Notes: generated by a model not told the origin, from the letters alone. DNA of 64,000 nt from Chloroflexota bacterium (GCA_021813655.1 JAKAJU010000072.1:853-64852); one strand, 5' to 3'; positions 5,487-15,863 are shown, numbered from the stretch's first letter. A program made the numbers and translations.

Positions 5487-6356
5487 TCATGCGAGCGCTG
5501 CCCCTCCGCCGCGCCCCTCGAACATCGCGTTGACCTCGTCGTACGAGAGCGTGTCCGCCGTCATGACCGTGTACGTCCCGGTCGCGACCCACTCCCGCGC
5601 CATCCGCCGGACGAGCGCGAGGGTCGCCCGCATCGGCCGCGGCCCGAACGTGACGCGGGCGACGCCGATCTCCTCGAGCTCCGGCAGCGACGGCATGCGA
5701 TCGCCGGCGACCACGTTGATGGGCGCGTCGATCTCCTGGACCAGGCGGGCGATGCTGGACCGATCGAGCGTGCCCATGTCGGGAATGAAGACGCAGTCGG
5801 CCCCCGCGCGGCGGTAGGCGTTCCCCCGACGGATCGCGTGGTGCAGCTGGTCGGCCGGCGTGCCGTCGCCCACGAGGTAGACGTCGGTCCGGGCATTGAC
5901 CACGAGGTGGATGCCGACGGACGTCGCCATCTCGCGGACGGCCCCGATCCGCTCGACCTGGAGCGCCTCATCGAACAGCGGGTCGGCGGGTTCGCCCGTG
6001 GCGTCCTCGAGGTTGATTCCAACGGCGCCGACGCGAAGAGCCGCCTCCGCCGATCGCGCGACCGCCTCCGGCTGGATGGCGTAGCCCGCCTCGAGATCGG
6101 CGCTCACCGGCACCGCGACGGCCGCCGCGATCCGGCCGACCGCGCCGATCATCTCGTCGAGGCTGATCCGCTGCCCGTCCGGGTAGCCGAGCGTGGAGGA
6201 GATGTCGGCGCTCGTCGTCGCGACCGCCCCGAAGCCCTCGAGCTCGTAGAGTCGCGCGCTGACGACGTCCCACGCATTGGGCAGGACCAGGATCCCGGGC
6301 CCGTGGTGGAAGGCGAGGAAGGCGTCGGCCTGGCGCCGCTGTTCGAGCGTGATCAT
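5487..6356 (-). CDS. isocitrate lyase / PEP mutase family protein (paralog of 4552..5370)
   Basis: Motifs LVLPNAWDVVSARL and INLEDATG. RBS GGAG precedes the ATG at 6356. It shares a 4-nt ATGA overlap with the upstream gene's stop. Confidence 0.8.
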   Translation of the reverse strand: MITLEQRRQADAFLAFHHGPGILVLPNAWDVVSARLYELEGFGAVATTSADISSTLGYPDGQRISLDEMIGAVGRIAAAVAVPVSADLEAGYAIQPEAVARSAEAALRVGAVGINLEDATGEPADPLFDEALQVERIGAVREMATSVGIHLVVNARTDVYLVGDGTPADQLHHAIRRGNAYRRAGADCVFIPDMGTLDRSSIARLVQEIDAPINVVAGDRMPSLPELEEIGVARVTFGPRPMRATLALVRRMAREWVATGTYTVMTADTLSYDEVNAMFEGRGGGAALA

Positions 6357-7366
6357 CGGAGGCTCCTCTCGCCGTCGCCGGCGGCGCCGACCGCGGTCGC
6401 GTCGCCGTTCGCCGATGTGCCCCCGCCACCGCCGCAGCCGGGCGTGGCCAGGGCCGCCGCGGTCGATGGATCCGCGGCCGCGAGCGAGGGGTCGGCGGCC
6501 TTCTCGACCTGCGAGGCCGCGACGCCTTTGATGCACCGCGCCATGCTGACTGCCGTGTCGATCTGCTCGTCCGTGGCCCCGAGCCGGCGCGCGGATGCCA
6601 CGTGGCGCGCCAGAGTCTCCGGGCAGCTCACGGCGAACGCCGCGGCCACGGCGGTGAGCTCCCGGAGCAGCGTGGACGCGTCCCAGCTGCCGGGCCTCTC
6701 CGTGACAGCGTCGCCGAGGAGCCCGGCCGCGCGCCCGGCGATGACGTCGGTCGCGTCACGCCGGACGTCGAGGGCTTCGTCGACCGCGGCGCGGAGCTGA
6801 TCGTCGGTCGCGCCGGCGGCGCGGGCTTCGTCGATGTGGCGGCGCGTGCATGGCCGGCAGCCGGCGGCGACCGACGCGCCGATCGCGACGAGCTCCTTGT
6901 CGCGGCGACCGAGCACCTCGCGCTCCTCCGACAGCGCCATCCCCATCACCTCGGCACTCTCGGGACAGAGGGTCGTGAACTCGACGGAGGCCCGGACTGC
7001 CTCCGGAACGTCGGCGCGGTTCGTGGTCGCGAAGCCGAACCGGCGGAAGAAGTCGCCGGCCGTCTCGGTCAGAAGGAAGACGCGATCCACCCCGAGCTCA
7101 CGAGCGAGACCGAGCGCGCTTCGCGTGAGCTCGTGACCGACACCCCGGCCCTGGCGCGACGGCGCGACCGCCACCGAGCGCAGCAGCGCGGCATCGCCGT
7201 ACGGCTCCAGGGCCGCGCAACCGCCGATCTCACCGCCGTCGATCCGCGCCACGAGGGTCGTGCCCAGGTGCTCGTGCAGCCCGCCGAGAGGAAGCGCGAC
7301 CCGGCGGACGAGCGCTTCGATCTCCGGCCAGTCGGCTTCCGTCGCGCGCCCGAGCTTGACGTTCAT
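6353..7366 (-). CDS. GNAT N-acetyltransferase (ArsN2-like) fused to two carboxymuconolactone decarboxylase (AhpD/CMD) domains
   Basis: N-terminal GNAT fold (RQGRGVGHEL). Then two CMD repeats with Cys motifs (AAGCRPCTRRH, AVSCPETL). Confidence 0.7.
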   Translation of the reverse strand: MNVKLGRATEADWPEIEALVRRVALPLGGLHEHLGTTLVARIDGGEIGGCAALEPYGDAALLRSVAVAPSRQGRGVGHELTRSALGLARELGVDRVFLLTETAGDFFRRFGFATTNRADVPEAVRASVEFTTLCPESAEVMGMALSEEREVLGRRDKELVAIGASVAAGCRPCTRRHIDEARAAGATDDQLRAAVDEALDVRRDATDVIAGRAAGLLGDAVTERPGSWDASTLLRELTAVAAAFAVSCPETLARHVASARRLGATDEQIDTAVSMARCIKGVAASQVEKAADPSLAAADPSTAAALATPGCGGGGGTSANGDATAVGAAGDGERSLR

Positions 7367-7938
7367 GATCGACCTCCACTCGGGGCGTGCGCCCCCGTCG
7401 CGCCGGCCACTGCACCCGCATCCCGGGATGAGCCCTCGGCGTCCTCAGCCGCCACTCGCCCGGCGACGGGGTCCGCCGCCGTCATCGCCGCCTGGCGGTC
7501 CTCGGCCACCAGCGCATCGCGCAGCGCCTCGAGCGCCGCGCGGACCCCTGGTCGCTGCTCGTCACGGATCCGCAGGATCACGCGTGCCGACAGCCCGTCG
7601 AGGGCCGCGTCGAGGTCGGCGAGGCGCACGCGGCCTGCCGCCGACAGGTCGACGACGACCGTCCGCCGATCGACCCCGCTGGGTGTCTTGGTGAGCGATC
7701 CGTCGGTCGCCAGCGCGTCGACGGCGCGGCTCACCCAGCCCTTGTCGACCTCCAGGGCTCGTCCGAGCTCGGCCAGCGTCATCGGCCCGCCGCGTCCGAG
7801 GGTCGTGAAGATCTGGCACTGCGTGGACGTCGTTCCACAGCACCCGAGCACATCCCGCTGCAGCCGGACATAGAGCCGGGCGACGTCCCGGAGCAGCTCC
7901 CCGGTCTGGGTCTCGTCCACGGTCGGCCTCGTTCTCAT
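7363..7938 (-). CDS. MarR-family transcriptional regulator
   Basis: Winged HTH (MTLAELGRALEVDKGWVSRAVDALATDG). Its stop overlaps the downstream start as ATGA. Confidence 0.85.
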   Translation of the reverse strand: MRTRPTVDETQTGELLRDVARLYVRLQRDVLGCCGTTSTQCQIFTTLGRGGPMTLAELGRALEVDKGWVSRAVDALATDGSLTKTPSGVDRRTVVVDLSAAGRVRLADLDAALDGLSARVILRIRDEQRPGVRAALEALRDALVAEDRQAAMTAADPVAGRVAAEDAEGSSRDAGAVAGATGAHAPSGGRS

Positions 7939-14941: not shown

Positions 14942-15778
14942 TCAGGAGGGCGTGGCCCCCGCGCCAGCCCGGCGCGCCACCTCGATGAACGGGCGGATCC
15001 GCGCGGTCAGCTCCATCACGGTGCGCTCGAAGGCCGCGAGCTTGTCCTCGTCCGTTCCCGTGACCTCAGCCGGATCGTCGAGGCCCCAGTGGAGCGCGTC
15101 GTGCTCGCCCGGGAAGACCGGGCACGCCTGGCGGGCGCGGTCGCACACGGTGATCACGTAATCCCAGGGCTCGCCGACGAACTCCGTCACCGACGTCGAG
15201 CGCGCCCCCGACCAGTCGATCCCGACGGCGGCGAGCGCGCGGATCGTGTACGGGTTCACGCCCGCGGGCTCAGTGCCGGCCGATCGCACCTCGAACGCGG
15301 CGCCACCGAATCGGCCGAGGAGCGCCTCGGCCATCTGGCTCCGAGCGGAGTTGCCCGTGCAGACGAAGAGCACCCGGATCGGGCGGTCGGACATCGTCGC
15401 GTCTCCCGTGGCGCGGCCGGCGGCCGCGATCGTCTCCTCCAGGTCGGCGAGCTCGGCCTCGAGGCGGTCGAGCTCCTCGCGCCGGGCCGCGATCGTCGCG
15501 CGCTGCGCCGCGATGAGCGGTGCCAGGTCCAGGTCGGGCGCGCCACGCTCGACGCACAGCGCCGCGAGCCGCCCGGCATCCTGCGGGGGAAGCCCCAGCC
15601 GCCGCAGCGCCACGACGACCCGCAGTCGGGCGAGGTCGTCGTCGGTGTACTCGCGATACCCGTTCGCCTCGCGTCGAGCGAGCGGCAGCACGCCTGCCGC
15701 CTCGTAGAAGCGGACGGCGGATGCGGCCACCCCGGAGCGTCTGGCCAGCTCGGAGACCTTCACGGCCCGACCGTACAC
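14942..15778 (-). CDS. arsC: MerR-family HTH domain fused to low-molecular-weight phosphatase-type arsenate reductase (ArsC, LMWP family)
   Basis: N-terminal VKVSELARRSGVAASAVRFYE (MerR HTH plus coiled coil). C-terminal VLFVCTGNSARSQMAE (CX5R P-loop of LMW-PTP ArsC). One continuous frame. Confidence 0.8.
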   Translation of the reverse strand: MYGRAVKVSELARRSGVAASAVRFYEAAGVLPLARREANGYREYTDDDLARLRVVVALRRLGLPPQDAGRLAALCVERGAPDLDLAPLIAAQRATIAARREELDRLEAELADLEETIAAAGRATGDATMSDRPIRVLFVCTGNSARSQMAEALLGRFGGAAFEVRSAGTEPAGVNPYTIRALAAVGIDWSGARSTSVTEFVGEPWDYVITVCDRARQACPVFPGEHDALHWGLDDPAEVTGTDEDKLAAFERTVMELTARIRPFIEVARRAGAGATPS

Positions 15779-15796
15779 CTTCGAGTCACTCGAAGG
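15778..15796. promoter_or_regulatory. 19-bp perfect palindrome CCTTCGAGT(C)ACTCGAAGG abutting the merR-arsC start
   Basis: Read directly. Odd-centred dyad immediately 5' of the GTG at 15778. Confidence 0.4.
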
Positions 15797-15863
15797 TCAA
15801 GGGGTGGCAGGCGGCGGCGGGGGTGTGAGGCGACCGCGCTCGCGCACGTGGGCCGCGCGATCG

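Follow-up and report, generated by a model that had tools for sequence, protein, structure and literature searches.

A probable multi-operon arsenic detoxification cluster in a Chloroflexota chromosome, with merR::arsC as a proposed self-contained unit

Genes of the arsenic cluster

We analyzed a window of 64,000 nucleotides (nt) from a Chloroflexota bacterium (GCA_021813655.1, JAKAJU010000072.1:853-64852; positions are counted from the first letter of the window), in which an initial annotation had reported an arsenic and organoarsenical resistance island at 6353-15800. All 12 genes that it named are present at the coordinates it gave, both in the six-frame list of open reading frames (ORFs) and in Pfam and NCBIfam scans; families were assigned to the window ORFs by the curated equivalog cutoffs of NCBIfam and by Pfam profile scans. 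Identical proteins occur on four public contigs (L001-L004; L numbers designate compared loci), with the same gene lengths and order in independent gene calls, and one of these contigs comes from the metagenome-assembled genome (MAG) GCA_027399795.1. We consider it likely that the region is an arsenic detoxification cluster of several operons, resident in the chromosome of a high-GC (guanine plus cytosine) genome of the Chloroflexota / Ca. Limnocylindria type and composed of standard ars modules, with one deletion scar and with merR::arsC as a self-contained unit. The cluster is real but largely ordinary; it holds one unique fusion and one decayed module. The observation made in the initial annotation is confirmed and its interpretation is partly supported. 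The features are as follows.

5487..6356, minus strand: PEPm2, PEP-mutase/isocitrate-lyase superfamily; PF13714 260 bits; last gene of its operon, left of the interval first annotated
6353..7366, minus strand: arsN2::CMD-CMD fusion; NF040501 138.6 bits (cutoff 125); PF02627 in two stretches
7363..7938, minus strand: marR-family regulator; PF12802, PF01047; first gene of the same operon
7938..9035, plus strand: 365-residue ORF, read as an in-frame deletion chimera; MFS_1/EmrB match from profile position 228 of 485
9112..10095, plus strand: Zn-independent quinone oxidoreductase-like gene (qor); TIGR02824 204.8 bits, below the cutoff of 296.8; ADH_N and ADH_zinc_N
10047..10664, minus strand: arsN1 (family A), candidate arsinothricin N-acetyltransferase; NF040503 221.1 bits (cutoff 170)
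10803..11141, plus strand: arsR1, CVC motif; PF01022, NF033788; first gene of arsR1-arsP-arsE-acr3, with an ATGA overlap with arsP
11138..12187, plus strand: arsP, organoarsenical permease; PF03773 (ArsP_1) 236.7 bits; TPFCSCS
12226..12474, plus strand: arsE-type MTH895/ArsE thioredoxin-like protein of 82 residues, CSNC; TIGR00412 86.7 bits (cutoff 62)
12549..13640, plus strand: acr3-like arsenite efflux permease; TIGR00832 252.2 bits (cutoff 282.8); PF01758 155 bits
13689..14492, minus strand: arsM, As(III) S-adenosylmethionine methyltransferase; NF008823 278.7 bits (cutoff 263); TTG start with AGGAGA upstream
14523..14551, plus strand: arsR2 promoter, TTGACT-17-TACCAT, from the promoter scan; ends 6 nt before the ATG
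14558..14902, plus strand: arsR2, CAC...SCC motifs; NF033788 88.7 bits; divergent from arsM
14942..15763, minus strand: merR::arsC; Pfam MerR_1, MerR, MerR-DNA-bind, LMWPc; ORF open to GTG 15778
15392..15407, minus strand: predicted internal ribosome-binding site and start of merR::arsC; GGGAG 15407-15403, ATG 15394-15392 (Met129)
15770..15800, minus strand: MerR-type promoter of merR::arsC; -35 TTGACC 15800-15795, 19-nt spacer, -10 TACGGT 15775-15770

The DNA itself and comparison with related loci show which families the genes belong to, where the genes of an operon join, and how the deletion chimera is composed; they also show conservation of the promoter with its operator, of the catalytic residues, and of the internal Shine-Dalgarno (SD) sequence with its start codon. 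In the arsR1-arsP-arsE-acr3 unit, the ArsP product combines the ArsP_1 domain with the vicinal-cysteine motif TPFCSCS, its translation showing IVTPFCSCSAVP; the role of this motif is reportedly known from work on C. jejuni ArsP. The pair of arsP and a thioredoxin-like gene recurs in two related loci (L090, L092), and the name ArsE is taken from a preprint. The last gene of the unit is matched over profile positions 6-325 of 327 of the Acr3 equivalog model at a score below the cutoff, which counts against a firm Acr3 assignment; judged by its context, the permease would work like Acr3. The convergent arsM, called as a 267-residue gene on the public contigs, encodes LGCGNP, SNCVVNL and AGCIAG, and lacks the N-terminal Cys of the four-Cys ArsMs. 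Upstream of arsR2, the initial annotation had placed a leaderless promoter. The promoter scan bears this out, and because neither the -35 nor the -10 differs in the orthologous loci L014 and L005, where the start again follows at 6-7 nt, a leaderless arsR2 mRNA is supported. As had been proposed, the gene content covers inorganic arsenic (ArsC domain, Acr3), methylated arsenic (ArsM, ArsP, ArsE) and arsinothricin (ArsN1).

The merR::arsC gene, its promoter and its internal start

The protein encoded by merR::arsC comprises a MerR winged helix-turn-helix (wHTH) with a coiled coil, a disordered linker, and a low-molecular-weight phosphatase (LMWP) arsenate-reductase domain, in that order. The AlphaFold model (predicted local distance difference test score, pLDDT, 84.9) shows the wHTH, a helix at residues 76-116, a linker with values below 50, and the LMWP domain. 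Matches in the PDB include 8P5N, 1JL3 (99.6 bits), SkgA and CueR; the best overall are LMWP arsenate reductases, while the N-terminal part is best matched by the TipA-class regulator SkgA. The initial annotation had counted this gene among "rare gene fusions". It is not rare: 4830 proteins match it at E<=1e-5, single-domain proteins included, more than 120 clusters at 69-79% identity have the two Pfam domains, and every one of the best 120 listed is a full-length fusion. The homologues lie beside arsR-arsP-trx or arsR-acr3, or in a pst/phoU/arsM-like neighbourhood.

Cys140 (in the P-loop CTGNSARS), Cys212 and Cys219 are invariant in 120/120 clusters, Arg146 and Asp235-Pro236 are conserved in at least 98% of them, and Cys75, in the MerR part, in 99%. 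The spacing of C140, R146, C212, C219 and D235 is identical to that of Cys10, Arg16, Cys82, Cys89 and Asp105 in pI258 ArsC. The window protein thus shares with the thioredoxin-coupled LMWP ArsC of S. aureus pI258 and B. subtilis the CX5R P-loop Cys, the Cys pair at +72/+79 and the Asp-Pro at +95; it differs from them in being fused to MerR and in scoring below the TIGR02691 cutoff. Its CTGNSARS has an Ala where pI258 ArsC has a second P-loop Cys.

The gene probably starts at GTG 15763 and not at 15778: the former lies 6 nt past the -10 and opens MKVSELA, the usual MerR N-terminus, so that a leaderless start is predicted. A palindrome, ACCTTCGAGTGACTCGAAGGT, occupies the spacer at 15797-15777 and contains a perfect 9-1-9 dyad, CCTTCGAGT-G-ACTCGAAGG. 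Activators of the MerR type, which act by distorting DNA, characteristically have a dyad at the centre of a 19-nt spacer; the wHTH, the coiled coil, and the position of the dyad together agree with a MerR-family activator, in which a -35/-10 spacer of 19-20 nt is expected. The same promoter arrangement is found in L014, L090, L091 and L092, with 6-7 nt from the -10 to ATG or GTG, and the dyad changes in these four loci are compensatory (CGAG/CTCG to CAAG/CTTG).

The only exact copy of the 19-nt palindrome core in the window is the one at the merR::arsC promoter, and there is one further site with 3 mismatches at 23417-23435; with both strands read, this makes 4 matches versus 0.14 expected. 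We considered the site at 23417-23435 as a second operator, found it inside a GntR-family coding sequence, and judged it a chance match. No further operator sites were found in L014 or in L090-L092. We also considered the operator as a specific marker of MerR::ArsC and rejected this, the TTGACCTTC..GAAGG dyad being a generic MerR-class box. The metagenome matches to TTGACCTTCRASTNACTYGAAGG (L093-L212) include many low-GC contigs that have the dyad box and its 19-nt spacer too, there with a GGAGG-containing leader behind it and then genes other than MerR::ArsC; 64/120 of these dyad-box matches have no MerR or ArsC similarity within 1.1 kb.

A second start is predicted within the gene. In the AlphaFold model the internal SD sequence and start codon fall in the low-confidence linker, just before the first LMWP strand. 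Position 129 is Met in 112/120 clusters and Val in 4/120, in a linker that is otherwise variable, and GGGAG or GGAGG stands 8-9 nt upstream of this codon in the window, L090, L091 and L092, even though the encoded amino acids differ. Of 33 metagenomic merR::arsC genes, 29 have an SD-like motif and an ATG or GTG no more than two codons away from the domain boundary; the remaining in-frame positions of these 33 genes give an expectation of about 2% per gene. The nominal binomial P of 7e-45 is inflated, because the 33 sequences are related and it overstates their independence. We predict that this start gives a free ArsC of about 150 residues beside the full-length protein.

Such an arrangement would resemble that of tipA, which yields both TipAL and TipAS and has been described as a resistance system of the "minimal autoregulated" kind (PMC7762955). 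TipAL/TipAS of Streptomyces lividans and the other members of the TipA class (SkgA, AlbA/AlbAS) likewise join a MerR HTH and coiled coil to a toxin-neutralising domain, and have a promoter directly upstream of their own gene; a further in-frame start ahead of the C-terminal domain has been shown for tipA and is predicted for merR::arsC. In contrast, the C-terminal domain here is an LMWP arsenate reductase (LMWPc) in place of the TipAS drug-binding domain (PF07739), so that the resemblance is one of architecture and logic only, and as effector one would expect an oxyanion or a redox state instead of an antibiotic.

Could the protein nevertheless serve a single function, either as an enzyme with a vestigial HTH or as a regulator with a dead sensor domain, the internal SD/ATG being a relic of the fusion? 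In favour of this, its ArsC domain scores 116.4 bits on the TIGR02691 equivalog model, whose cutoff is 174.3, and Met129 sits at the expected start of a free arsC gene, so that its SD sequence could be ancestral. Two further points count against our reading of merR::arsC as a self-contained unit: the operator is of a generic type, 87/120 metagenomic matches not lying before MerR::ArsC and 33/120 lying before it; and, as noted above, the genes that keep the internal start are related to one another. A single function is nonetheless unlikely. Conservation, with compensatory changes, extends to the HTH, to the dyad of the operator and to the length of its 19-nt spacer; the 120 clusters keep the catalytic Cys, Arg and Asp; and 29/33 genes, at 65-78% protein identity, retain the SD sequence with its ATG or GTG although the linker amino acids vary.

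We retain the two-function reading of MerR::ArsC, and tentatively extend it: the protein may belong to a class of arsenic-responsive modules, as yet undescribed but widespread, that consist of one gene each, with a leaderless self-activated promoter, a sensor-regulator whose effector domain is a reductase, and a free enzyme made from an internal start. We found no description of a MerR-ArsC fusion in the literature, a weak negative because coverage was incomplete, subscription journals lying outside it. If the proposal is right, the transcriptional response would be keyed to arsenate turnover or to the redox state of the reductase, and not to As(III) binding by ArsR. Because all well-studied arsenic regulators, to our knowledge, sense trivalent species, a reductase-coupled MerR would follow a different sensing logic and might serve as an arsenate biosensor part. 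The promoter, operator and internal start are stated here to the base, which makes TipA-like self-activation with two products testable.

The merR::arsC ORF is preceded, at a distance of 85 nt, by the end of a gene for a hybrid histidine kinase of 1028 residues (PAS/HisKA/HATPase/receiver; 15864-18950, minus strand). This adjacency is seen only in L001-L004, which represent the same population, and not in other MerR::ArsC loci.

The arsN genes and the deletion chimera

To place the PAT-like GNAT encoded by arsN1, we compared its scores across models. Besides its 221 bits on the ArsN1 family A model (NF040503), it scores 90 bits on family B and 65 bits on the phosphinothricin (PPT) acetyltransferase model (cutoff 300). 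Its pairwise score is nearer to B. subtilis YwnH (79 bits, the best match among solved structures) than to PpArsN1 (44 bits), and for this reason the NF040503 model was calibrated, with three PDB-derived sequences: YwnH scores 122, the PAT of 5DWM 100.6, and Salmonella YncA/MddA 95, and the range for the window protein together with seven relatives is 214-234. Because it reaches 221 bits where the housekeeping enzymes reach 95-122, with the cutoff at 170, we assign the window GNAT to ArsN1 subclade A. It does not group with the housekeeping PPT or methionine-sulfoximine (MSO) enzymes, a grouping that the initial annotation had named as contrary to its proposal, but stands about 100 bits apart from them on the ArsN1a model. 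The gene lies in the ars cluster, divergent from arsR1-arsP-arsE-acr3, and with its family-A score the label "candidate arsinothricin-resistance gene" is a fair one.

Two results make this label less secure. PpArsN1, the sole characterised ArsN1, is only a distant relative, and recognisable ars neighbours within 5 kb are found for only 20/80 close family-A homologues. These 80 were drawn from species-representative genomes, and the limited set of queries and the shortness of many contigs make 20/80 a lower bound. Because of the distance to PpArsN1 and the few ars neighbours, we infer the arsinothricin specificity of the window ArsN1 and do not assert it. PpArsN1 (P. putida KT2440 PhoN1; PDB 5JTF/5WPH/6M7G) resembles the window protein as a PAT-like GNAT encoded in an ars cluster, and differs from it in pairwise score and in family, the window protein belonging to family A. 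No characterised family-A enzyme was found in the literature examined.

The enzyme might instead be a general PPT/MSO acetyltransferase that stands beside ars genes by chance. The higher pairwise score with YwnH, the 60/80 close homologues in which no ars neighbour was recognised, and the origin of PAT and MAT within the ArsN1 clade (PMC6465285) would fit such an enzyme. We think it doubtful, given the separation from YwnH, 5DWM and YncA/MddA on the ArsN1a model, the low score on the PPT acetyltransferase model, the divergent position next to arsR1-arsP-arsE-acr3, and the recurrence of an arsR-arsM-arsN2-arsN1 module in five Chloroflexota loci (L005, L009, L014, L021, L058).

Two further observations concern ArsN1 in the window and elsewhere. 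Its homologues align to residues 1-158 only, and the protein has a 45-residue, Arg/Pro/Thr-rich, low-complexity C-terminal tail (10047-10190) that is absent from the homologues and shares 49 nt with the 3' end of qor, which is convergent. This tail could be a second scar, the junction of a rearrangement in which the original stop codon was lost. In Acidobacteriota and other MAGs (L007, L008, L025, L028, L029, L037, L041, L062, L074), an ArsN1a homologue is divergent from a SAM methyltransferase gene just upstream of it; the methyltransferase is 27-34% identical to ArsM, and the pair recurs outside ars clusters.

The second acetyltransferase belongs to the operon marR-arsN2::CMD2-PEPm2. Both junctions of this operon are ATGA start/stop overlaps, and it therefore continues to the left of the interval first annotated, to 5487. 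Residues 12-142 of the fusion correspond to profile positions 1-131 of 133 of the ArsN2 model, so that the score above the NF040501 cutoff extends over the whole GNAT domain, and the CMD part begins at residue 147. The first CMD contains CRPCTRRH, which fits the AhpD-type redox motif CxxCxxxH and is kept in the standalone relatives; with its CMD fold it qualifies as AhpD-like (PF02627). The second CMD has a single Cys. Here the initial description of a rare fusion holds in full: in a word-indexed search of 5.8 billion clusters the only full-length match to ArsN2::CMD-CMD was itself, and in an exhaustive HMMER search of 1.84 billion representative proteins the protein itself scored 705 bits and the next match 147 bits, covering one half only.

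This uniqueness can be turned around, and the fusion taken for an assembly or frameshift artefact, or for a recent non-functional accident. It is a singleton in two very large searches, the closest standalone CMD2 gene (L085) has no ArsN2 upstream, and the ACC motif shared by the standalone proteins is missing from the fused copy; because it is a singleton and has lost this motif, it could be a recent neutral accident, a possibility that tells against a functional fusion. We regard artefact or accident as distinctly unlikely, and the fusion is probably not an artefact: the identical protein occurs on six contigs (sources NCBI, ENA and Logan), neither domain is truncated and the join between them is clean, an independent fusion of an ArsN2-like domain to a single CMD with CxxCxxxH exists (P0304), and standalone CMD2 genes adjoin arsR-arsM (L086) or lie near an ArsN2-like GNAT (L088). 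Elsewhere ArsN2 is fused to LMWP ArsC, ArsN1, ArsM, NUDIX or HAD domains. Because we know of no substrate for ArsN2, such partners are clues, and the unique fusion, together with the recurrence of AhpD-like CMD genes with arsM and arsN2, points to a thiol-redox step; we hypothesize that the ArsN2::AhpD fusion couples acetylation to it.

Several side observations attach to this operon. The standalone CMD2 proteins have an ACC(G/S)EK motif between the two CMDs and Cys-rich C-terminal tails; the fused window copy (6353-6500; alignment A2) has GSWDAS in place of this motif and one Cys, in PGCGGGGG. In L085 the standalone CMD2 gene is followed on its 3' side by a PEPm2 orthologue, 61.5% identical. 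PEPm genes had no matches in the 80 ArsN1 loci, and we rejected a general link between phosphoenolpyruvate (PEP) mutases and ars genes, the association being only with the CMD2 gene. In the window itself, two PEP-mutase/ICL-superfamily paralogues, about 35% identical, are convergent (4549-5370, plus strand; 5487-6356, minus strand); the best PDB match of PEPm2 is 2ZE3 (DFA0005). Both carry IED-x-TG at what is presumably the place of the lyase KRCGH loop. A MarR-family gene adjoins ArsN1 in the Deinococcus loci L063 (5679-7131) and L069 (308-1287) and in L017 (9552-10531, Dictyobacter), and in L063 it adjoins ArsN2 too, which suggests that MarR rather than ArsR may control arsN genes in several phyla.

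Between marR and qor lies the decayed module, which the initial annotation had called a chimeric MFS remnant. Its chimeric nature holds, and can be refined to a deletion scar, at which an ArsD-like small gene runs on into what is left of an MFS gene, its 3' half. Only residues ~85-345 match DHA2 MFS pumps, in their C-terminal half (the last ~8 transmembrane segments), and the first ~88 residues are 63-78% identical to proteins of 126-147 residues without a Pfam domain, in which the motif VSGACCFPPL is invariant; the junction lies near 8200. In L089 the gene order is arsR, a CC-motif small protein, an ArsA-family ATPase and a 521-residue DHA2 MFS gene, and the chimera is 66% identical to this small protein and 76% identical to the C-terminal 271 residues of this MFS protein. 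This is most simply read as the result of an in-frame deletion, some 1.9 kb long, to which the small gene would have lost its 3' third, arsA its entire length and the MFS gene its 5' half. The chimeric ORF is probably a pseudogene.

The N-terminal part of the chimera has no Pfam match at E<=10, ArsD (PF06953) included, and a profile search of the PDB with it returned only a weak thioredoxin match (E 0.09). The small protein is modelled with a thioredoxin-like fold (pLDDT 80) that matches generic thioredoxins, ArsD (3KGK) ranking 19. We call it ArsD-like only from its position and its vicinal cysteines. As in arsRDABC, the small protein of L089 is encoded between arsR and an ArsA-family ATPase, has vicinal Cys after strand 1 and is predicted to be thioredoxin-like. 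It differs from ArsD in having no PF06953 match and in that ArsD is not its top fold match; moreover, the L089 ATPase is followed by a DHA2 MFS pump and not by ArsB or Acr3, and the window keeps only the truncated chimera. The Pfam-less family of ~130-residue proteins with VSGACCFPPL (P0158-P0165), to which the gene at L089 8001-8402 (P0161) belongs, is itself worth recording; a possible role is that of an ArsD analogue feeding the ArsA/MFS pair.

Setting and proposed working of the cluster

The central gene has its nearest species-level relatives, at 76-79% identity, in Chloroflexota / Ca. Limnocylindria MAGs, and the window is uniformly high in GC (0.69-0.75; 0.69-0.74 in 3-kb bins over 64 kb), falling to 0.67 across arsP and acr3. 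The initial annotation had taken the region for an island whose boundaries should appear in GC skew and flanking repeats, and neither part of this was borne out. In the 64-kb window we found no tRNA and no break in GC or skew; no repeats flank the cluster, the only repeats being the short, low-identity ones typical of high-GC DNA; the longest inverted repeat (89 nt, I1) merely reflects the two PEP-mutase paralogues; there is no integrase or transposase among the window ORFs scanned; and an Rfam scan of 4-19 kb gave no match. The marks of a mobile genomic island (a border tRNA or integrase, flanking direct repeats, deviant composition) are thus lacking in the window. A horizontally acquired mobile arsenic island with definable boundaries, which the modular gene content, the internal rearrangement scar and the GC dip might suggest, is very unlikely in view of these results and of the recurrence of the module pairs arsR-arsM and arsR-arsP-trx in related Chloroflexota chromosomes.

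Function is deduced from family membership throughout, and what is known of these families would give a resident cluster the following working. Arsenate would be reduced by the thioredoxin-type LMWP ArsC domain of MerR::ArsC, and the resulting As(III) exported by Acr3 or methylated by ArsM; ArsP would export trivalent methyl and aromatic arsenicals with the assistance of the thioredoxin-like ArsE, and ArsN1 would N-acetylate the antibiotic arsinothricin. ArsR1 would repress arsR1-arsP-arsE-acr3 and probably the divergent arsN1 too, while ArsR2, translated from its leaderless mRNA, would control itself and the divergent arsM. In the third operon, marR-arsN2::CMD2-PEPm2, the ArsN2 acetyltransferase would act joined to its AhpD-type CxxCxxxH thiol-disulfide module, and the ancestral arsD-like/arsA/MFS unit would have been inactivated by the ~1.9-kb deletion. 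For MerR::ArsC, we hypothesize that it binds the dyad in its own 19-nt-spacer promoter and activates this promoter when its reductase domain engages arsenic; the internal start would also yield free ArsC enzyme, as tipA gives TipAL and TipAS.

Extended ars clusters with arsR, acr3, arsC, arsM, arsP and arsN1/arsN2 were compiled by Nadar et al. 2019 (PMC6465285), and the window adds another, placing arsinothricin-resistance-type genes in soil Chloroflexota. It has in common with them the same clustered families, a CxC-motif ArsR, and both arsN1 and arsN2 in an ars context. It differs in comprising three or four transcription units in place of one operon, in the fusion of ArsN2 to a tandem AhpD-like module and of ArsC to MerR, and in carrying the decayed arsD-like/arsA/MFS unit.

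A last observation comes from L092, the locus of the closest MerR::ArsC relative among those on a long contig: here a radical-SAM/SPASM gene (12767-14017) lies inside the ars cluster, between arsR-acr3 and trx-arsP.

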